Below are positions 13,913 through 60,973 of a stretch of DNA of 64,000 nt, piece by piece; position 1 is the stretch's first letter, and each line of letters begins with the position of its first letter. Source of the stretch: Escherichia coli (GTDB lineage: Bacteria; Pseudomonadota; Gammaproteobacteria; Enterobacterales; Enterobacteriaceae). The notes beneath the pieces were generated by a model. That model was not told the origin of the DNA and searched no databases. It saw nothing but the letters and a program-made list of their open reading frames with translations. The translations under genes were made by a program, and so were the position numbers. Location: assembly GCF_050920415.1 (NCBI RefSeq), contig NZ_CP169309.1. One strand, given 5' to 3'.

Positions 13913-13926
13913 AAACGGAGCCAAAC

Positions 13927-14706
13927 ATGCAAACCATCACCATCGCCCCACCCAAGCGCAGCTGGTTCTCGCTTCTGAGCTGGGCCATTGTTCTCGCCGT
14001 GCTGGTCGTCTCGTGGCAGGGCGCGGAAATGGCCCCGCTCACGCTGATTAAAGACGGCGGCAACATGGCGACGTTCGCCGCCGACTTCTTCCCGCCCGAT
14101 TTCAGCCAGTGGCAGGATTACCTCACCGAAATGGCCGTCACGCTGCAAATCGCCGTCTGGGGCACTGCGCTGGCAGTCGTTCTCTCCATCCCCTTCGGCC
14201 TGATGAGCGCCGAAAACCTGGTGCCGTGGTGGGTTTACCAGCCCGTTCGCCGCCTGATGGACGCCTGCCGCGCCATTAACGAGATGGTCTTCGCCATGCT
14301 GTTCGTGGTCGCCGTCGGTCTCGGTCCGTTCGCTGGCGTACTGGCGCTGTTTATCCACACCACCGGCGTGCTCTCCAAACTGCTTTCCGAAGCGGTGGAA
14401 GCGATTGAACCCGGCCCGGTGGAAGGCATTCGCGCCACCGGTGCCAATAAGCTCGAAGAGATCCTCTACGGCGTGCTGCCGCAGGTCATGCCGCTACTGA
14501 TTTCCTACTCACTCTATCGTTTCGAATCCAACGTGCGTTCCGCCACCGTTGTTGGCATGGTCGGCGCTGGCGGAATTGGCGTCACGCTGTGGGAAGCGAT
14601 TCGCGGTTTCCAGTTCCAGCAAACCTGCGCCCTGATGGTGCTGATTATCGTCACGGTCAGCCTGCTGGATTTCCTCTCTCAACGGTTGCGTAAGCACTTT
14701 ATCTGA
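13927..14706 (+). CDS. phnE: Phosphonate ABC transporter permease (intact reading frame)
   Basis: 259-aa uninterrupted ORF beginning [28 protein letters not shown] with permease topology; GGAG RBS 8 nt upstream. Confidence 0.88.
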
Positions 14707-14726
14707 TAAGCGAGGCATTGATATCT

Positions 14727-15452
14727 ATGCACTTGTCTACACCTCCGACCAGCTACCCAACACGCTATCAGGAGATAGCCGCAAAACTTGAGCAGGAGCT
14801 TCGTCAACACTACCGCTGCGGCGACTATCTTCCCGCCGAGCAGCAACTGGCAGCGCGCTTTGAGGTGAATCGCCACACCCTGCGCCGTGCCATCGACCAA
14901 CTGGTGGAAAAAGGCTGGGTACAGCGCCGTCAGGGCATCGGCGTACTGGTGCTGATGCGCCCGTTCGATTACCCGCTCAACGCCCAGGCGCGTTTTAGCC
15001 AGAACCTGCTGGATCAGGGTAGCCATCCCACCAGCGAAAAACTGCTGTCCGTGCTGCGCCCGGCCTCCGGTCACGTCGCTGACGCGCTGGGGATAACCGA
15101 GGGCGAGAACGTTATCCACCTGCGCACCCTGCGCCGGGTCAACGGCGTCGCGCTCTGTTTAATCGACCACTACTTTGCGGACCTCACTCTCTGGCCGACG
15201 CTGCAACGCTTCGACAGCGGCTCGCTGCACGATTTTTTGCACGAGCAAACGGGAATTGCGCTGCGCCGCAGCCAGACGCGGATCAGCGCCCGCCGCGCCC
15301 AGGCCAAAGAGTGCCAGCGTCTTGAAATTCCGAATATGTCGCCGCTGCTGTGCGTGCGCACCCTTAACCACCGTGACGGTGAAAGCAGCCCGGCGGAGTA
15401 CTCCGTCAGCCTGACGCGCGCCGACATGATTGAATTCACCATGGAGCACTGA
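14727..15452 (+). CDS. phnF: GntR-family repressor of the phn operon
   Basis: 241 aa from ATG (MHLSTPPTSYPTRYQEIAAKLEQ); N-terminal GntR HTH, UTRA-like C-terminus. Confidence 0.9.
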   Translation: MHLSTPPTSYPTRYQEIAAKLEQELRQHYRCGDYLPAEQQLAARFEVNRHTLRRAIDQLVEKGWVQRRQGIGVLVLMRPFDYPLNAQARFSQNLLDQGSHPTSEKLLSVLRPASGHVADALGITEGENVIHLRTLRRVNGVALCLIDHYFADLTLWPTLQRFDSGSLHDFLHEQTGIALRRSQTRISARRAQAKECQRLEIPNMSPLLCVRTLNHRDGESSPAEYSVSLTRADMIEFTMEH

Positions 15453-15905
15453 ATGCACGCAGATACCGCGACCCGCCAGCACTGGATGTCCGTGCTGGCG
15501 CACAGCCAACCGGCTGAACTGGCTAACCGCCTTAAAGCGCTAAACATCACCACCGACTATGACATTATCCGCGCCGCCGAAACCGGCCTGGTACAGATTC
15601 AGGCGCGAATGGGTGGCACCGGCGAACGCTTTTTTGCTGGCGACGCTACGCTCACCCGCGCCGCTGTACGCCTTACTGACGGCACGCTCGGCTACAGCTG
15701 GGTGCTGGGGCGCGACAAACAGCACGCCGAACGCTGCGCGCTGATTGACGCGCTGATGCAGCAATCTCGCCACTTTCAAAACTTATCAGAAACCCTTATT
15801 GCCCCGCTGGACGCTGACCGTATGGCACGCATTGCCGCACGCCAGGCCGAAGTGAACGCCAGTCGGGTCGACTTCTTTACGATGGTTCGCGGAGACAACG
15901 CATGA
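15453..15905 (+). CDS. phnG: C-P lyase core complex subunit PhnG
   Basis: 150 aa; position and sequence in the phnGHIJ block. Confidence 0.9.
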
Positions 15906-16486
15906 CCCTGGAAACCGCTTTTATGCTTCCCGTGCAGGATGCCCAGCACAGTTTTCGTCGCCTGTTAAAGGCAATGAGCGAGCCGGGCGTGATTGTCGCC
16001 CTGCATCAGCTCAAACGCGGCTGGCAGCCGCTGAATATCGCCACCACCAGCGTGCTGCTGACGCTGGCCGATAACGACACGCCGGTGTGGCTTTCCGCGC
16101 CATTAAGTAACGATATCGTCAGCCAGAGCCTGCGTTTTCATACCAACGCCCCGCTGGTCAATCAGCCGGAACAGGCGACCTTCGCAGTGACGGATGAGGC
16201 GATTGCCAGCGAGCAGCTCAACGCCCTTTCCACCGGCACCGCCGTTGCGCCGGAAGCCGGTGCGACGTTGATTTTACAGGTCACCAGCCTGAGCGGCGGA
16301 CGCATGCTGCGCCTCACCGGCGCGGGTATTGCCGAAGAACGGATGATCGCCCCGCAACTGCCGGAGTGCATTCTGCACGAACTCACCGAGCGCCCGCACC
16401 CGTTCCCGCTCGGCATCGACCTGATCCTGACCTGCGGCGAGCGCCTGCTGGCTATTCCGCGAACCACTCATGTGGAGGTGTGCTGA
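15902..16486 (+). CDS. phnH: C-P lyase core complex subunit PhnH
   Basis: 194 aa; overlaps the phnG stop (ATGA). Confidence 0.9.
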
Positions 16487-17550
16487 TGTACGTTGCCGTG
16501 AAAGGGGGCGAGAAGGCGATCGACGCCGCCCACGCCCTGCAAGAGAGCCGACGCCGGGTCGATACCGATTTGCCTGAACTGAGCGTCGCCCAGATTGAAC
16601 AGCAGCTTAATCTCGCGGTGGATCGCGTGATGACCGAAGGCGGCATTGCCGACCGCGAACTGGCCGCACTGGCGCTGAAACAGGCCAGTGGCGATAACGT
16701 TGAAGCAATTTTCCTGCTGCGCGCCTACCGCACGACGCTGGCAAAACTGGCGGTAAGCGAGCCGCTCGACACCACCGAGATGCGTCTCGAACGCCGTATC
16801 TCCGCCGTTTATAAAGACATTCCTGGCGGCCAGCTGCTTGGCCCGACCTACGACTACACCCATCGCCTGCTCGATTTCACCCTGCTGGCGAATGGCGAAG
16901 CGCCGACGCTGACCACCACCGACAGCGAGCAAGCCCCATCGCCGCACGTTTTCAGCCTGCTGGCGCGTCAGGGGCTGGCGAAGTTTGAAGAGGATAGCGG
17001 CGCACAGCCGGATGACATCACCCGTACACCGCCGGTTTACCCTTGCTCTCGCGCCTCCCGCCTGCAACAGCTCATGCGCGGCGACGAAGGCTACTTGCTG
17101 GCGCTGGCCTACTCCACCCAGCGTGGTTACGGACGCAATCACCCGTTCGCAGGCGAAATCCGCAGTGGCTATATCGACGTGTCTATTGTGCCGGAAGAGC
17201 TGGGATTTGCGGTGAACGTCGGTGAACTGCTGATGACCGAGTGTGAAATGGTTAACGGTTTTATCGACCAGCCGGATGAGCCGCCGCACTTCACGCGCGG
17301 CTACGGGCTGGTGTTTGGCATGAGCGAGCGCAAAGCGATGGCAATGGCGCTGGTTGACCGCGCTCTACAAGCCCCGGAGTACGGCGAGCACGCGACAGGC
17401 CCGGCGCAGGATGAAGAGTTCGTGCTGGCGCATGCCGACAACGTCGAAGCCGCAGGCTTTGTCTCGCACCTCAAACTCCCGCACTACGTCGATTTCCAGG
17501 CCGAGCTGGAGCTACTCAAACGTCTGCAACAGGAGCAGAACCATGGCTAA
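16486..17550 (+). CDS. phnI: C-P lyase subunit PhnI (ribosyl-triphosphate-forming nucleosidase)
   Basis: 354 aa from [13 protein letters not shown]; start overlaps the phnH stop by 1 nt (TGATG); the longer upstream track extension was rejected. Confidence 0.9.
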   Translation: MYVAVKGGEKAIDAAHALQESRRRVDTDLPELSVAQIEQQLNLAVDRVMTEGGIADRELAALALKQASGDNVEAIFLLRAYRTTLAKLAVSEPLDTTEMRLERRISAVYKDIPGGQLLGPTYDYTHRLLDFTLLANGEAPTLTTTDSEQAPSPHVFSLLARQGLAKFEEDSGAQPDDITRTPPVYPCSRASRLQQLMRGDEGYLLALAYSTQRGYGRNHPFAGEIRSGYIDVSIVPEELGFAVNVGELLMTECEMVNGFIDQPDEPPHFTRGYGLVFGMSERKAMAMALVDRALQAPEYGEHATGPAQDEEFVLAHADNVEAAGFVSHLKLPHYVDFQAELELLKRLQQEQNHG

Positions 17551-18388
17551 TCTGAGCGGCTACAACTTTGCGTACCTCGACGAGCAGACCAAACGTATGA
17601 TCCGCCGCGCCATCTTAAAAGCGGTGGCGATCCCCGGTTATCAGGTGCCGTTTGGCGGGCGCGAGATGCCGATGCCATACGGCTGGGGAACCGGCGGCAT
17701 ACAGCTTACCGCCAGTGTGATTGGCGAAAGCGACGTGTTGAAGGTGATTGACCAGGGCGCGGATGACACCACCAACGCCGTATCAATTCGCAACTTTTTC
17801 AAGCGCGTGACCGGGGTAAACACCACTGAACGTACGGATGATGCGACGCTTATCCAGACGCGCCACCGCATCCCCGAAACGCCGCTGACCGAAGATCAGA
17901 TCATTATCTTCCAGGTGCCGATCCCGGAACCGCTGCGCTTTATCGAGCCGCGCGAAACGGAGACCCGCACCATGCACGCGCTGGAGGAGTACGGCGTGAT
18001 GCAGGTGAAACTGTATGAAGATATCGCCCGCTTCGGTCATATCGCCACCACCTACGCCTATCCGGTGAAGGTGAACGGACGCTACGTCATGGACCCATCG
18101 CCGATCCCGAAATTTGATAACCCGAAAATGGACATGATGCCCGCCCTGCAACTGTTCGGCGCGGGGCGTGAGAAGCGTATTTATGCGGTGCCGCCGTTTA
18201 CCCGCGTGGAAAGCCTCGATTTCGACGATCATCCGTTCACCGTTCAGCAGTGGGATGAACCCTGCGCCATCTGCGGATCGACCCACAGCTATCTCGATGA
18301 AGTGGTGCTGGATGACGCCGGAAACCGCATGTTTGTCTGCTCCGATACCGATTATTGCCGCCAACAGAGCGAGGCGAGAAGCCAATGA
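17543..18388 (+). CDS. phnJ: C-P lyase radical-SAM subunit PhnJ
   Basis: 281 aa from MANLSGYNFAYLDEQTKRMIRRAILKAVAIPGYQVPFGGREMPMPYGWGTGG; C-terminal Cys cluster CAICGSTHSYLDE...CSDTDYC. Confidence 0.92.
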   Translation: MANLSGYNFAYLDEQTKRMIRRAILKAVAIPGYQVPFGGREMPMPYGWGTGGIQLTASVIGESDVLKVIDQGADDTTNAVSIRNFFKRVTGVNTTERTDDATLIQTRHRIPETPLTEDQIIIFQVPIPEPLRFIEPRETETRTMHALEEYGVMQVKLYEDIARFGHIATTYAYPVKVNGRYVMDPSPIPKFDNPKMDMMPALQLFGAGREKRIYAVPPFTRVESLDFDDHPFTVQQWDEPCAICGSTHSYLDEVVLDDAGNRMFVCSDTDYCRQQSEARSQ

Positions 18389-19143
18389 ATCAACCGTTAC
18401 TTTCGGTCAATAACCTGACCCACCTTTACGCGCCGGGCAAAGGCTTCAGCGATGTCTCTTTTGATTTATGGCCGGGGGAAGTGCTGGGCATTGTCGGGGA
18501 ATCCGGTTCCGGGAAGACCACGCTGCTGAAATCAATCTCCGCCCGTCTGACACCGCAACAGGGGGAGATTCACTATGAAAACCGTTCCCTCTATGGCATG
18601 AGCGAGGCCGACCGCCGTCGCCTGCTGCGCACCGAATGGGGCGTGGTGCATCAGCATCCGCTCGACGGCCTGCGCCGTCAGGTGTCAGCAGGCGGCAATA
18701 TCGGCGAACGGCTGATGGCGACCGGGGCGCGTCATTACGGCGATATTCGCGCCACCGCGCAGAAGTGGCTGGAGGAGGTGGAGATTCCCTCCAACCGTAT
18801 CGACGACCTGCCGACCACTTTTTCCGGCGGTATGCAGCAGCGTTTGCAGATTGCCCGCAACCTGGTGACGCATCCGAAGCTGGTGTTTATGGATGAACCG
18901 ACCGGCGGGCTGGATGTATCGGTACAGGCGCGCCTGCTCGATCTGCTGCGCGGTCTGGTGGTGGAGCTGAATCTGGCGGTGGTGATTGTCACCCATGATT
19001 TAGGCGTCGCCCGCCTGCTGGCGGACCGTTTGCTGGTGATGAAGCAGGGGCAGGTGGTGGAGAGTGGGTTAACCGACCGCGTACTCGACGACCCGCATCA
19101 TCCGTATACCCAGTTGCTGGTGTCATCGGTTTTGCAGAATTGA
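18385..19143 (+). CDS. phnK: C-P lyase associated ABC-type ATPase PhnK
   Basis: 252 aa from MNQPLLSVNNLTHLY; Walker A GESGSGKTT, signature FSGGMQQR. Confidence 0.92.
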   Translation: MNQPLLSVNNLTHLYAPGKGFSDVSFDLWPGEVLGIVGESGSGKTTLLKSISARLTPQQGEIHYENRSLYGMSEADRRRLLRTEWGVVHQHPLDGLRRQVSAGGNIGERLMATGARHYGDIRATAQKWLEEVEIPSNRIDDLPTTFSGGMQQRLQIARNLVTHPKLVFMDEPTGGLDVSVQARLLDLLRGLVVELNLAVVIVTHDLGVARLLADRLLVMKQGQVVESGLTDRVLDDPHHPYTQLLVSSVLQN

Positions 19144-19164
19144 GTTGCAACACTTTGCGCACTG

Positions 19165-19278
19165 ATCCCCTCACCCCGGCCCTCTCCCGGAGGGAGAGGG
19201 AGAAAACCGGCGCAATATTCAACACCGTGCACAAGCGGTCCCCTCGCCCCTTTGGGGAGAGGGTTAGGGTGAGGGGCA
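19165..19278. repeat. GC-rich composite palindromic repeat, copy 2 (inverted relative to copy 1)
   Basis: cccctcaccccggccctctcccggagggagagggagaaaacc ... ggtcccctcgcccctttggggagagggttagggtgagggg in the phnK-phnL spacer. Confidence 0.7.
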
Positions 19279-19320
19279 ATGTGCGCACCGCTCCCAAACA
19301 TGCGAACCACGAGGCGAAAA

Positions 19321-20001
19321 ATGATTAACGTACAAAACGTCAGTAAAACCTTCATCCTGCACCAGCAAAACGGCGTGCGCCTGCCCGTCTTACAACGCGC
19401 CTCGCTCACCGTCAACGCGGGCGAATGCGTGGTGCTCCACGGTCACTCCGGCAGCGGCAAATCAACTCTGCTACGCTCGCTGTACGCCAACTATCTGCCC
19501 GACGAAGGGCAAATCCAGATCAAACACGGTGACGAATGGGTAGACCTGGTCACCGCGCCAACGCGCAAAGTGGTGGAAATCCGCAAAACCACTGTCGGCT
19601 GGGTAAGCCAGTTTCTGCGCGTCATCCCGCGTATTTCGGCACTGGAAGTGGTGATGCAGCCGCTGCTCGATACCGGCGTTTCGCGTGATGCCTGCGCCGC
19701 TAAAGCCGCGCGTCTGCTCACCCGCCTGAACGTGCCGGAACGTCTGTGGCACCTGGCGCCATCGACCTTCTCCGGCGGCGAACAGCAGCGCGTCAACATC
19801 GCGCGCGGCTTTATCATCGATTACCCCATTCTGCTGCTCGACGAACCTACTGCCTCGCTGGACGCCAAAAACAGCGCCGCGGTGGTGGAACTGATCCGCG
19901 AAGCTAAAACCCGCGGCGCAGCCATCGTCGGCATCTTCCACGACGAAGCCGTACGCAATGACGTCGCCGACCGCCTGCACCCAATGGGAGCCTCTGCATG
20001 A
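19321..20001 (+). CDS. phnL: C-P lyase associated ABC-type ATPase PhnL
   Basis: 226 aa from [25 protein letters not shown]; Walker [10 protein letters not shown], signature FSGGEQQR. Confidence 0.9.
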
Positions 20002-21134
20002 TTATCAATAACGTCAAACTGGTGCTGGAAAACGAAGTGGTACACGGTTCGCTGGAGGTGCAGGACGGCGAAATTCGCGCCTTTGCCGAAAGCCAGAGCC
20101 GCCTGCCAGAAGCGATGGACGGCGAAGGTGGCTGGCTGCTGCCGGGACTGATTGAGCTGCATACCGATAATCTGGATAAATTCTTCACCCCGCGCCCGAA
20201 AGTGGACTGGCCCGCCCACTCGGCGATGAGCAGCCACGATGCGCTGATGGTGGCGAGCGGCATCACCACCGTGCTGGACGCCGTGGCGATTGGCGACGTG
20301 CGCGACGGCGGCGATCGGCTGGAGAATCTGGAAAAGATGATCAACGCCATCGAAGAGACGCAGAAACGCGGCGTCAACCGCGCCGAGCACCGCCTGCACC
20401 TGCGCTGCGAACTGCCGCATCACACTACGCTGCCGCTGTTTGAAAAACTGGTGCAGCGCGAGCCGGTCACGCTGGTGTCGCTAATGGACCACTCACCGGG
20501 CCAGCGCCAGTTCGCCAATCGCGAGAAGTATCGCGAATATTACCAGGGCAAATACTCGCTCACCGATGCGCAGATGCAGCAGTACGAAGAGGAACAACTG
20601 GCGCTTGCCGCACGCTGGTCGCAGCCGAATCGCGAAACCATCGCCGCAATGTGCCGCGCGCGACAAATTGCCCTCGCCAGCCACGATGACGCCACGCACG
20701 CGCACGTTGCCGAATCCCACCAGCTTGGCAGCGTAATCGCCGAATTTCCCACCACGTTCGAAGCGGCGGAAGCTTCGCGCAAGCATGGCATGAATGTATT
20801 GATGGGCGCGCCGAATATTGTGCGCGGCGGTTCGCACTCCGGCAACGTGGCGGCCAGTGAACTGGCACAGCTTGGTCTGCTGGATATCCTCTCTTCCGAC
20901 TACTACCCCGCCAGCCTGCTCGATGCGGCATTCCGCGTCGCCGATGACGAGAGCAACCGCTTTACGCTGCCGCAGGCGGTGAAGCTGGTGACTAAAAATC
21001 CGGCGCAGGCGCTTAATCTTCAGGATCGCGGGGTGATTGGCGAGGGCAAACGCGCCGACCTGGTGCTGGCGCATCGCAAGGGCAACCACATTCATATCGA
21101 TCACGTCTGGCGTCAGGGTAAAAGGGTGTTCTGA
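19998..21134 (+). CDS. phnM: Amidohydrolase-family PhnM (ribosyl-triphosphate diphosphohydrolase)
   Basis: 378 aa; overlaps the phnL stop (ATGA). Confidence 0.9.
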
Positions 21135-21691
21135 TGACGGGAAAACTGATTTGGTTAATGGGGGCCTCTGGCTCCGGAAAAGACAGTCTGTTGACGGAAC
21201 TCCGCCAGCGGGAACAAACTCAGCTACTGGTAGCGCATCGCTACATCACGCGCGCCGCCAGCGCCGGAAGTGAAAACCATATCGCCCTGAGCGAGCAGGA
21301 GTTTTTTACCCGCGCGGGGCAGAACCTTCTGGCCTTAAGCTGGCACGCCAACGGCCTGTATTATGGCATCGGCGTCGAGATTGACCTCTGGCTGCACGCT
21401 GGATTTGACGTGGTGGTCAACGGCTCACGCGCCCATCTACCGCAGGCGCGGGCGCGCTATCAATCGGCGCTGCTGCCCGTTTGTTTACAGGTTTCGCCAG
21501 AGATCCTGCGCCAGCGCCTGGAAAACCGTGGTCGTGAAAATGCCAGTGAAATTAACGCCCGGCTGGCGCGCGCTGCCCGCTATACTCCTCAGGATTGTCT
21601 TACGCTCAATAATGACGGCAGCCTGCGCCAGTCGGTCGACAAGCTGCTGACGCTGATTGATCTGAAGGAGAAACACCATGCCTGCTTGTGA
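21134..21691 (+). CDS. phnN: Ribose 1,5-bisphosphate phosphokinase PhnN
   Basis: 185 aa; P-loop [12 protein letters not shown]; guanylate-kinase-like. Confidence 0.9.
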
Positions 21692-22112
21692 GCTTCGCCC
21701 GGCTACGCAGTACGACACCGACGCAGTTTACGCGCTGATTTGTGAGCTAAAACAGGCGGAGTTTGACCACCACGCGTTTCGCGTGGGCTTTAACGCCAAT
21801 CTGCGCGACCCGAACATGCGCTACCATCTGGCGCTGCTGGATGGCGAAGTTGTCGGCATGATCGGCCTGCATTTGCAGTTTCATCTGCATCATGTCAACT
21901 GGATCGGCGAAATTCAGGAACTGGTGGTGATGCCGCAGGCGCGCGGTCTGAACGTCGGCAGTAAATTACTGGCATGGGCCGAAGAAGAAGCCCGCCAGGC
22001 CGGGGCCGAAATGACCGAGCTTTCCACCAACGTCAAGCGCCACGACGCGCACCGTTTCTATCTGCGCGAAGGCTACGAGCAGAGCCACTTCCGCTTCACC
22101 AAGGCGCTGTAA
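21678..22112 (+). CDS. phnO: Aminoalkylphosphonate N-acetyltransferase PhnO (GNAT)
   Basis: 144 aa; GNAT-like acetyl-CoA region; overlaps phnN by 14 nt. Confidence 0.88.
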
Positions 22113-22113
22113 C

Positions 22114-22872
22114 ATGAGCCTGACCCTCACACTTACTGGCACTGGCGGCGCACAGGGTGTTCCCGCATGGGGCTGTGAGTGCGCGGCCTGCGCCAGAGCG
22201 CGGCGCTCACCGCAGTATCGCCGCCAGCCATGCAGCGGCGTCGTGAAGTTTAACGACGCGATCACCCTGATCGACGCCGGGCTGCACGATCTCGCCGATC
22301 GCTGGTCGCCCGGATCGTTCCAGCAGTTTTTGCTGACGCACTACCATATGGATCACGTGCAGGGGCTGTTTCCGCTGCGCTGGGGCGTGGGCGATTCGAT
22401 CCCGGTCTACGGCCCGCCGGATGAACAGGGCTGCGACGATCTGTTTAAACATCCGGGCCTGCTTGATTTCAGCCACACGGTGGAGCCATTTGTGGTGTTT
22501 GATTTGCAGGGATTGCAGGTGACGCCGCTACCGCTTAACCATTCGAAACTCACTTTCGGCTATTTACTGGAAACGGCGCACAATCGGGTGGCGTGGCTGT
22601 CTGACACCGCGGGCCTGCCAGAAAACACGCTGAAATTTTTACTCAATAATCATCCGCAGGTGATGGTGATTGATTGCAGCCATCCGCCGCGCGAGGATGT
22701 GCCGCGTAATCACTGCGATTTAAACACCGTGCTGGCGCTGAATGAGATTATCCGTTCACCGCGCGTGATTCTGACGCACATCAGCCACCAGTTTGATGCG
22801 TGGCTGATGGAAAATACGCTGCCATCGGGGGTTGAGGCGGGGTTTGATGGGATGGAGATTGGGGTGGAGTGA
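22114..22872 (+). CDS. phnP: Phosphoribosyl cyclic phosphodiesterase PhnP (metallo-beta-lactamase fold)
   Basis: 252 aa; HxHxDH motif ([11 protein letters not shown]). Confidence 0.9.
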
Positions 22873-22906
22873 TGGGTGAGGGGCGATGCCTGCTCTAGAC
22901 TCAACA

Positions 22907-23236
22907 TCACCGCCCATACTCATCTTCCATTCTCCGCTCTTCATCTTCTAGCTGCCGACGCTCCTGATCCAGCTGGCGCTGGCGATCGTCCAGCTGCTTG
23001 CGGCGATCTTCAAACTGGCGGCGGCGATCGTCATATTGTCTGCGCCGATCGTCGTTCACTTCACGCTGCCAGCCGTCGTCGCGCGAATCTTCATAGTCTC
23101 GCCCACGGTCAGGGTTATAAGCATCGTTAATCGCCTGCTGAATATTGCCAATGGTGTCGTCGATAATATCGGCCTGGGCCGGAACGGTGGACAGCGTGAG
23201 CAGGGTGAATAAAATAAATAGCGGAAAACGTTTCAT
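22907..23236 (-). CDS. yjdP: Small secreted protein YjdP with a highly charged D/E/R/Q repeat region
   Basis: 109 aa; signal peptide MKRFPLFILFTLLTLSTVPAQA followed by DDRRRQYDDRRRQFEDRRKQLDDRQRQLDQERRQLEDEERR. Confidence 0.75.
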   Translation of the reverse strand: MKRFPLFILFTLLTLSTVPAQADIIDDTIGNIQQAINDAYNPDRGRDYEDSRDDGWQREVNDDRRRQYDDRRRQFEDRRKQLDDRQRQLDQERRQLEDEERRMEDEYGR

Positions 23237-23304
23237 TAGCCAACCTCAAAAAGAAACTCTATCCACATTAGTCATTACTCATCCATGCAAGTAGTGGATG
23301 AATC

Positions 23305-23622
23305 TCAATTTTTCCGCTGCTCTATTGCCGTAATCGCCTCCACGCGTTGTTGATGACGACCGCCTTCGTACTGCGCGCCCAGCCACGCATCCACAATCAT
23401 TTTTGCCAGTTCGAGGCCAACCACTCGTGAACCAAAAGCCAGTGCAACTTCACTGGCGTAATGCGGATAATCAGTGCGCTCTGACGACCTGGTTTCTTTA
23501 TCAATCCCCTCACTCATTGACTATGAATAAAAGGCTGGCACAGCAACGCAGAATCCTGCGGTGCCAGCGACATGACCGCCCATTGCTCCGGTACGTTTTT
23601 TAATAAGAAACACCGGTTGCAT
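23305..23622 (-). pseudogene. rpiB: Remnant of ribose-5-phosphate isomerase B (internally deleted, 5' region degenerate)
   Basis: 70-aa ORF MSEGIDKETRSSERTDYPHYASEVALAFGSRVVGLELAKMIVDAWLGAQYEGGRHQQRVEAITAIEQRKN matches the RpiB N-proximal segment (WSSERTDYPHYASQVALA) and C-terminus as recalled, but lacks the central part with the catalytic Cys; an in-frame stop lies 2 codons upstream. Confidence 0.55.
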
Positions 23623-23874
23623 TGATTAATTGTGCTCAGTATTTGCCGAAGTACAATATATATAATAAATATATAAAACACCTCATATTATTTACAGAGA
23701 TAATGAATTCGCGTACTTTTCCCTCTTCAGCACAAATGCCTAATAAAATGGCTCGTTCCGCTCACACTTCCACTTATTAAAGTCGCAAATTCCCAATTAT
23801 GATAACGCCAGCTTTAAATGACGTATTTTGCATGGATTACATATTTACGACATAAATGATAAATGGAGATTTAT

Positions 23875-25860
23875 ATGAATAACTCTCGGTTATTCCGTTT
23901 GAGCAGGATTGTTATTGCGTTAACTGCCGCCAGCGGCATGATGGTAAATACCGCTCACGCAACAGATGAAGCGAAAGCCGCGACTCAATATACCCAGCAG
24001 GTTAATCAGCATTACGCAAAATCATTACCGTTTAGCGATCGTCAGGACTTTGACGATGCCCAGCGCGGATTTATCGCCCCGCTGCTGGATGAAGGTATTC
24101 TGCGCGATGCGAATGGCAAAGTTTACTACCGCGCGGATGATTACAAATTTGATATTAATGCCGCTGCGCCGGAAACCGTAAACCCCAGCCTGTGGCGTCA
24201 GTCGCAGATCAACGGCATTTCTGGCCTGTTCAAAGTCACCGATAAAATGTATCAGGTACGCGGCCAGGATATCTCTAACATTACATTCGTTGAGGGCGAG
24301 AAAGGCATTATTGTTATCGACCCACTGGTAACGCCGCCTGCCGCAAAAGCCGCACTTGACCTTTACTTCCAGCATCGTCCGCAAAAACCGATTGTTGCTG
24401 TGATTTACACCCACAGCCACGCCGACCATTATGGCGGTGTGAAAGGCATTATCTCTGAAGCGGATGTTAAATCTGGCAAAGTGCAAGTGATCGCTCCGGC
24501 AGGCTTTATGGACGAAGCCATCAGCGAAAACGTGCTGGCGGGTAACATCATGAGCCGCCGTGCGCTCTACTCTTACGGTCTGTTACTGCCGCATAACGCG
24601 CAAGGCAACGTGGGCAACGGCCTGGGCGTGACGCTGGCAACGGGCGACCCGAGCATTATTGCGCCAACCAAAACGATTGTCAGAACTGGCGAGAAGATGA
24701 TTATCGACGGCCTGGAATTTGACTTCCTGATGACTCCGGGTAGCGAAGCGCCAGCCGAAATGCACTTCTATATTCCGGCCCTGAAAGCCCTGTGTACCGC
24801 CGAAAACGCCACGCATACCCTGCACAACTTCTACACCCTGCGCGGCGCGAAAACCCGCGATACCAGCAAGTGGACAGAGTATCTGAACGAAACGCTGGAT
24901 ATGTGGGGTAACGACGCGGAAGTACTGTTTATGCCACACACCTGGCCGGTCTGGGGCAATAAGCATATCAATGATTATATTGGTAAATATCGCGATACTA
25001 TCAAATACATTCACGACCAGACCCTGCACCTGGCGAACCAGGGTTACACCATGAATGAAATTGGCGACATGATTAAGCTGCCACCTGCGCTTGCCAATAA
25101 CTGGGCCAGCCGCGGCTATTACGGTTCTGTCAGCCACAACGCCCGCGCGGTGTATAACTTCTATCTTGGCTATTACGACGGTAACCCGGCTAACCTGCAT
25201 CCGTATGGTCAGGTGGAGATGGGTAAACGTTACGTGCAAGCTCTGGGCGGTTCTGCCCGCGTTATTAACCTGGCGAAAGAAGCGAACAAGCAAGGTGATT
25301 ATCGCTGGTCGGCAGAACTGCTGAAACAGGTGATTGCCGCCAACCCGGGTGACCAGGTCGCGAAGAATCTGCAAGCGAATAACTTTGAACAGCTGGGCTA
25401 TCAGGCCGAGTCCGCCACCTGGCGCGGTTTCTACCTGACCGGCGCAAAAGAGCTGCGCGAAGGGGTGCATAAGTTCAGCCACGGCACCACCGGTTCTCCG
25501 GACACCATTCGCGGGATGTCGGTCGAAATGCTGTTCGACTTTATGGCCGTTCGCCTCGATAGCGCGAAAGCCGCAGGTAAGAATATCAGCCTGAACTTCA
25601 ATATGAGCAACGGCGATAACCTCAACCTGACGCTGAACGATAGCGTGCTTAACTACCGTAAAACGCTGCAACCTGAAGCCAACGCCTCTTTCTACATCAG
25701 CCGTGAAGATCTTCACGCCGTGCTGACCGGACAAGCCAAAATGGCGGATCTGGTAAAAGCGAAGAAAGCCAAAATTATTGGCAATGGCGCGAAACTGGAA
25801 GAAATTATTGCCTGTCTGGATAATTTCGATTTGTGGGTGAATATCGTAACCCCAAATTAA
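23875..25860 (+). CDS. yjcS: Putative alkyl/aryl sulfatase (metallo-beta-lactamase fold, SdsA1-like)
   Basis: 661 aa from [29 protein letters not shown] (signal peptide); HSHADH motif ([11 protein letters not shown]); RBS-supported second ATG chosen. Confidence 0.88.
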
Positions 25861-34037: not shown

Positions 34038-34222
34038 GTAGGCCTGATAAGGCGCGCCAAGCGTCGCATCAGGCATTGATGTCGGATGCGGCGTAAACGC
34101 CTTATCCGACCTACAAAATCACCCTAAATCAAGCTATTGCGCAGTCTGGCGTAGGCCTGATAAGACGCGGCAAGCGTCGCATCAGGCATCCACACATTGC
34201 CGGGTGTATGTCCCCGGCAATC
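34038..34222. repeat. REP/BIME cluster
   Basis: Several gcctgataaggcgc...gcgtcgcatcaggc and gtcggatgcggcgtaaacgccttatccgacctac units between yjcO and gltP. Confidence 0.75.
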
Positions 34223-60658: not shown

Positions 60659-60973
60659 CTATTGAAACGTTTTATTATGAGATTTGTTGCAAAAACCATC
60701 TGACCATAACGCCAGCTGCCAGGGAATAAAAGGATTATCTACGGCTTTTGTTAAGAAAGGGAGCAGGATCACATGCGATCAGACTATGTTTGTTGTATTT
60801 AATAACTTAATGGCTCTCTATTGTGTAAAAATATTCGGATATAAAAACTTCTATTTTCTCAGTAGGAAATATCGATTATCAGAACCCATTCCTTTGTACG
60901 ATTAGCCGAAAAAATACGTATACCCACTTATTGATGATTGAGCAGGCGGCTGTTCATCCGCCTGCCAACGACA

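Follow-up and report, generated by a model that had tools for sequence, protein, structure and literature searches.

The D-allose regulon of Escherichia coli K-12 (Kim et al., 1997; Poulsen et al., 1999; both as cited in the part of PMC2808357 that deals with als) is the closest described system to the locus analyzed here. A D-allose operon is defined by the alsBAC transporter, the alsE epimerase, the alsK kinase, and the alsR regulator, and in K-12 the interval between yjdP and yjcS holds a full rpiB together with alsR, alsB, alsA, alsC, alsE, and alsK. The operon is not universal in the species: according to the passages on als in the respective papers, it is absent from EAEC 042, in which the lack of allose use was confirmed with Biolog plates (PMC2808357), from E. 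coli W, which does not use allose either (PMC3032704), and from PCN033 (PMC4578781), and alsK is missing from 21 of 63 genomes (PMC5992433). In those passages the operon including rpiB is called completely absent from the als-negative strains, and an rpiB remnant goes unmentioned. A further occupant of the same yjdP-yjcS interval is the O157:H7-type island of 9.5 kb, which carries a different gene set (hybrid sensor kinase, sugar ABC transporter, D-lyxose/D-mannose isomerase, aldolase, kinase, and response regulator).

The stretch of E. coli DNA analyzed here (64,000 bp; hereafter the window) occupies the same site as the K-12 regulon and still shows homology to it in two stretches of rpiB (residues 29-53 and 107-149) and in the stop codon and terminator of alsK, but none of the seven als/rpiR genes is left, nor is the promoter of rpiB, and the locus is not a functional member of that system. 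It is very probably a deletion scar that was inherited and amounts to a pseudogene, left by two deletions in an als-bearing ancestor. The loss of als and the failure to use allose are already published and the relic is already in RefSeq; the locus is an ordinary gene-content polymorphism, known in kind.

The window corresponds to positions 4337550-4265281 of K-12 in reversed orientation, an interval of 72,270 bp in K-12 versus 64,000 bp here, and over its first 24.9 kb it matches strain MFDS1022581 (NZ_CP169399.1) at 100% identity, the next-best genome reaching 98.2%. The original prediction, made from the sequence alone, held that only about 640 bp separate yjdP from yjcS, that the D-allose operon is missing from this site, that K-12 carries a full rpiB and alsR-alsBACEK there, and that the window is several kb shorter than its K-12 counterpart, and each of these statements was borne out. 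The interval measures 638 bp (23237-23874), as delimited by open reading frame (ORF) calls and by the PGAP start of yjcS in the identical strain, and contains no alsR-alsBACEK; of the operon, only the alsK stop codon and terminator are left. No als gene was detected anywhere in the 64-kb window by tblastn with the K-12 Als proteins, and tblastn with K-12 proteins returned the rpiB fragment and unrelated ABC ATPases at 23-30% identity. Probes containing rpiB matched a single place on the chromosome of the strain. The features of the site are as follows.

22114-22872, plus strand: phnP, to the left of yjdP
22907-23236, minus strand: yjdP, intact, left flank of the variable site (ORF call, annotation in the identical strain, and tblastn to K-12 YjdP)
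23305-23622, minus strand: disrupted 105-codon chimeric ORF, 318 nt (annotated by PGAP in the identical strain as a pseudogene with an internal stop)
23305-23436, minus strand: rpiB 3′ piece, residues 107-149 plus stop codon; DNA 98.5% identical to K-12
23437-23512, minus strand: rpiB middle piece, residues 29-53; 87-93% identical to als-bearing (als+) alleles and 88.8% to K-12
23437-23442, minus strand: internal-deletion junction, CTGGCT (Leu-Ala; AGCCAG on the plus strand), from junction sequences and overlapping blastn HSPs
23513-23520, no strand assigned: large-deletion junction, 8 bp assignable to neither side
23521-23523, minus strand: TAG nonsense codon, changed base at 23522; TGG in 8 other carriers of the scar and CCA on the plus strand in K-12
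23523-23572, plus strand: alsK end, with the stop codon at 23524-23526 and the terminator hairpin at 23534-23568; blastn 78% over 50 nt
23573-23650, no strand assigned: 78-bp stretch, found only in the remnant allele and in 9 of 9 remnant alleles
23651-23874, plus strand: yjcS upstream region, common to all alleles at the site and right boundary of the variable segment
23875-25860, plus strand: yjcS (alkyl sulfatase), intact, right flank; 98.8% identical to K-12 YjcS

The start of yjcS at 23875 follows the PGAP call in the identical strain, and another possible ATG lies at 23863.

The rpiB remnant is best followed through the 70-aa minus-strand ORF at 23305-23517, which was recovered by the ORF calls as predicted. 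Alignment of this ORF with RpiB was a point on which the original prediction depended, and BLASTP against K-12 RpiB gave E=6e-36 and 63 identities in 68 aligned residues. The ORF consists of RpiB residues 29-53 fused directly to residues 107-149 across a single gap of 53 residues in the BLASTP alignment, in agreement with the proposed joining of an N-proximal part of RpiB to its C-terminus with loss of the center. A full RpiB domain has about 145 residues and an N-terminal GCDH motif. The remnant lacks residues 1-28 and 54-106, and Cys66, Thr68, His99, and Asn100 fall within the latter segment; Cys66/Thr68 and His99/Asn100 belong to what we take, from the structural literature, to be the catalytic region of E. 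coli RpiB. The description of the remnant as internally deleted is thus accurate as far as it goes, but the 5′ end is truncated too, codons 1-28 and the promoter being gone. The in-frame stop expected just upstream is the TAG at 23521-23523, two codons upstream of the 70-aa ORF.

Alignment with K-12, whose arrangement differs from that of the window, allowed the endpoints of two deletions to be mapped. The internal rpiB deletion removes 159 bp in frame, and in K-12 rpiB the hexamer CTGGCT is present at each end of the segment that was lost (an extended repeat agrees at 9 of 10 bases), with one copy kept in the window. The larger deletion took out about 6.56 kb. It starts at the third base of rpiB codon 28, ends in the last bases of alsK, and comprises rpiB codons 1-28, the rpiB/alsR promoters, alsR, alsB, alsA, alsC, alsE, and alsK; homology stops at window position 23512 and is picked up again at about 23521. 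No microhomology is visible at this junction (23513-23520), and the proposal that the junction lies at short CTGGC-type repeats therefore holds for the 159-bp internal deletion and fails for the 6.56-kb deletion. The identity of the sequence beyond the junction was established by a Smith-Waterman score of 45 with the alsK end, versus 16.6 +/- 2.2 for shuffled sequences (z about 13), and the terminator hairpin at 23534-23568 folds with -25.7 kcal/mol. The rpiB 5′ end was also considered as the source of the sequence upstream of the stop codon and was rejected, since comparison with the K-12 rpiB 5′ end and the rpiB-alsR intergenic region gave a score of 19 versus 17.3 +/- 2.3 for shuffles; the upstream stretch matches the alsK 3′ end and terminator instead, with the score of 45. 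The PGAP pseudogene extension to 23622 is therefore the chimeric 105-codon ORF and not RpiB. For the 78-bp stretch that follows, blastn and Smith-Waterman searches returned nothing in the K-12 als region, the Escherichia whittamii als locus, or the O157-type island, nor in the loci of Escherichia sp. MOD1-EC7003, Kluyvera, and Pluralibacter or in the rest of the window.

The best-supported history starts from an ancestor in which rpiB and alsR-alsBACEK lay between yjdP and yjcS. In rpiB, 159 bp would have been lost in frame between the two CTGGCT repeats, in a manner typical of replication slippage or microhomology-mediated deletion, and about 6.56 kb would have been lost between rpiB codon 28 and the stop codon of alsK, the 78-bp stretch being associated with the resulting scar. 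The order of these two losses is presumptive, and a single complex event is also conceivable. The scar allele has since spread, or been retained, in many E. coli lineages, and the window strain has acquired a nonsense mutation on top of it. The expected phenotype is an absence of D-allose growth and of inducible RpiB, with ribose-5-phosphate isomerase activity depending on RpiA alone; that the window strain would not grow on D-allose and would have RpiA as sole ribose-5-phosphate isomerase is a prediction already known to hold for other carriers.

The distribution of the scar was determined with a junction probe of 281 bp, which spans both deletion junctions and the 78-bp stretch, in 5426 complete RefSeq E. 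coli genomes. The rpiB scar allele was found in 1570 of these (~29%), with the probe matching over its full length at 97.5-100% identity; the K-12 alsR-alsK segment was found in 3404 of the 5426 and the O157:H7-type 9.5-kb island in 422, and the three alleles together account for 5396 genomes. About 3409 other genomes match the junction probe over its rpiB part only; als+ genomes gave matches of this kind, with none to the 78-bp stretch. On these counts, the yjdP-yjcS site has three essentially exclusive alleles plus rare others, and since the counts fit mutual exclusion they argue against a second als copy in the carriers, which do not appear to keep the operon elsewhere. The proportion of operon-less genomes here (~37%) agrees with the 21 of 63 genomes without alsK given in the relevant part of PMC5992433. 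The O157:H7-type island shares with the scar its right boundary at about 23651-23655, but contains no rpiB or als fragments and is absent from the window. Parts of this island adjoin yjcS in Citrobacter and Pluralibacter too, and the copy in Escherichia sp. E1V33 is 97% identical.

Nine scar alleles were extracted, and all are exactly 638 bp long with the same junctions. Both 042 and W are among them, and these published als-negative strains carry exactly the scar of the window, including both junctions and the 78-bp stretch, although the window strain differs from them by the extra nonsense codon in its remnant ORF; the window and 042 align without gaps over 638 columns. The "complete absence" of rpiB in 042, as worded in the als passage of the published report, overlooks this remnant. 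No intermediate with a single deletion was found in a spread sample, in which each row matched 100% or at most 40% of the probe. In NZ_LR890349.1 (strain MSB1_9D), IS903B lies directly upstream of yjcS, the region from phnC to alsK is gone, and yjcS and mdtN are pseudogenes; this loss is a separate, IS-associated event at the same site. The yjdP-yjcS interval is a handy three-allele marker of gene-content variation in E. coli.

The scar allele looks old from the divergence among its copies. Pairwise differences between scar alleles average 1-3% per segment and reach 5.7%, a level close to that in the yjcS upstream region that all alleles share, and the interior pieces show a divergence of 8-23% from als+ alleles. 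Identity to als+ alleles is 87-93% for rpiB codons 29-53 and 73-79% for the alsK terminator; with the E. coli als+ alleles as reference it is 87-92% and 77-79%, respectively, compared with 97.5-99.5% for the neighboring rpiB 3′ end. One explanation, held loosely, is an old deletion whose flanks were homogenized by recombination while the interior pieces may have been unable to recombine without restoring the operon. An origin outside this history is possible, if rather unlikely: the scar could have entered E. coli by recombination with a diverged Escherichia lineage, or could be a very old polymorphism, older than the E. coli radiation. Such an origin would fit the interior pieces, which stand about as far from the als+ alleles of E. 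coli as from their counterparts in E. whittamii and another Escherichia species, next to an rpiB 3′ end so close to the E. coli alleles. However, the interior identities rest on segments of 50-70 bp with 5-16 differences and have wide confidence intervals, and relaxed constraint after pseudogenization raises divergence as well. Furthermore, a contig scan anchored on YjcS did not find the scar in any of four other Escherichia representative genomes: at the site, the als operon is intact in E. whittamii and in one other, the O157-type island is present in Escherichia sp. E1V33, and MOD1-EC7003 carries something else.

The deletion also created the 105-codon ORF, which is, by its composition, a chimera: codons 1-35 come from antisense reading of the 78-bp stretch and of the alsK terminator, and the remainder derives from rpiB. 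This ORF is open at 105 codons in 8 of 8 other carriers, including 042 and W, and in these its RefSeq name is "RpiB/LacA/LacB family sugar-phosphate isomerase" (WP_001183282, WP_001183283, WP_001183287, and WP_001183290). Because K-12 and the 8 other carriers have another base, the TAG is derived and private to the window lineage among the 9 alleles. It might be supposed that the ORF encodes a functional small protein in carriers and was newly inactivated in the window strain, and the open frame, its protein annotation in the other carriers, and the absence of indels among the 9 alleles agree with this. Nevertheless, the pattern of substitution is that expected under neutrality and unlike that of yjdP: the 318-nt ORF has 14 variable sites in the 9 alleles, 10 nonsynonymous (1 of them nonsense) and 4 synonymous, where random mutation would give 76% nonsynonymous, versus 5 nonsynonymous and 13 synonymous sites in yjdP of the same 9 genomes (Fisher p=0.03). 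The lack of a stop among about 13 substitutions is unremarkable, being by our estimate a matter of roughly even chance. The native promoter region of rpiB, the rpiB-alsR intergenic segment, is deleted, no sigma-70-like site was found by a consensus scan of 23200-23900, and the only terminator-like match of the promoter scan is a hairpin that lies at the internal junction, within the coding remnant of rpiB.

The core of the RpiB fold is gone, and both family models are failed. The 70-aa ORF scores 77.5 bits with TIGR01120 rpiB (cut-off 138.65; K-12 RpiB 255.7) and 62.9 bits with TIGR00689 (cut-off 88.3; K-12 RpiB 211.1), and the 105-aa form from 042 scores 73.9 and 58.7 bits, respectively, both below the cut-off. 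Descent from the RpiB/LacA/LacB family is evident by homology; the score cut-offs are not reached and the full-length domain is missing. A functional small protein is on this evidence very unlikely, and a fuller version, in which an ancient scar has persisted at ~29% in a long-lived three-way polymorphism and the 105-codon ORF is expressed in carriers as a new small protein, its loss being confined to this strain, deserves just as little credence. The remnant looks instead like a non-functional, pseudogene-like sequence, with apparently neutral substitutions and a broken frame, in what is a small sample of 9 alleles; it is incapable of making the isomerase, as it has neither the N-terminal strand, nor the Cys66/His99 region, nor its own promoter. 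RefSeq thus lists as a 105-aa protein in many genomes a relic that is pseudogene-like, and this is probably over-annotation, given the substitution pattern and the domain content.

That the locus is a deletion relative to a K-12-like ancestor was correctly foreseen and is supported by the mapped junctions and by the RpiB alignment with its 53-residue gap. The accompanying suggestion that the deletion is specific to this strain was wrong. A recent deletion confined to the window strain could draw on the facts that a single genome in the collection reaches 99% identity with the window over 24.9 kb and that the TAG at 23521-23523 is private among the 9 alleles, but the identical junctions in 1570 of 5426 genomes, including 042 and W, the divergence of the carriers' flanks from the window (042: 96.6% over the first 24.9 kb), and the differences of up to 5.7% between carriers inside the scar leave it scarcely any probability.

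In Kluyvera, phnP, yjdP, and yjcS are adjacent, and in Salmonella arizonae phnP adjoins yjcS, with no rpiB or als in either. The als island is probably itself an insertion, to judge from these gene orders, and the older enterobacterial arrangement would be the one without the island. The same loci might be taken to mean that the window has an ancestral empty site, into which the als island never inserted, and that its likeness to RpiB is coincidental; yet the two colinear rpiB pieces (E=6e-36) and the alsK stop codon and terminator (z about 13) lie in the correct order and orientation, which makes coincidence wildly improbable. The remnant pieces being colinear and correctly oriented, the ancestor of the window is concluded to have borne als. 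An assembly or sequencing artefact can be dismissed outright, the same 638-bp structure being present in 1570 independently assembled complete genomes.

Several other differences from K-12 were observed in the window. In the phnP-yjdP spacer (window position 22874), a GC-rich palindromic repeat element of 111 bp (CCCTCTCCCC...GGGGCGAGGGG type) is present in K-12 and missing from the window, and yjdM-yjdN (window position ~11290) is about 445 bp shorter than in K-12. The gltP-yjcO spacer (34038-34187) contains a single repeat unit of about 113 bp in the window versus four tandem copies in K-12, and measures only 77 bp in E. coli W. The tyrB-aphA interval (60769-60972) is 202 bp in the window versus 975 bp, including yjbS, in K-12. 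Finally, the phn operon (13916-22874) is 94.0-95.3% identical to K-12 and its flanks 96.5-97.6%, which suggests that the phn block may have had a recombination history unlike that of its flanks.
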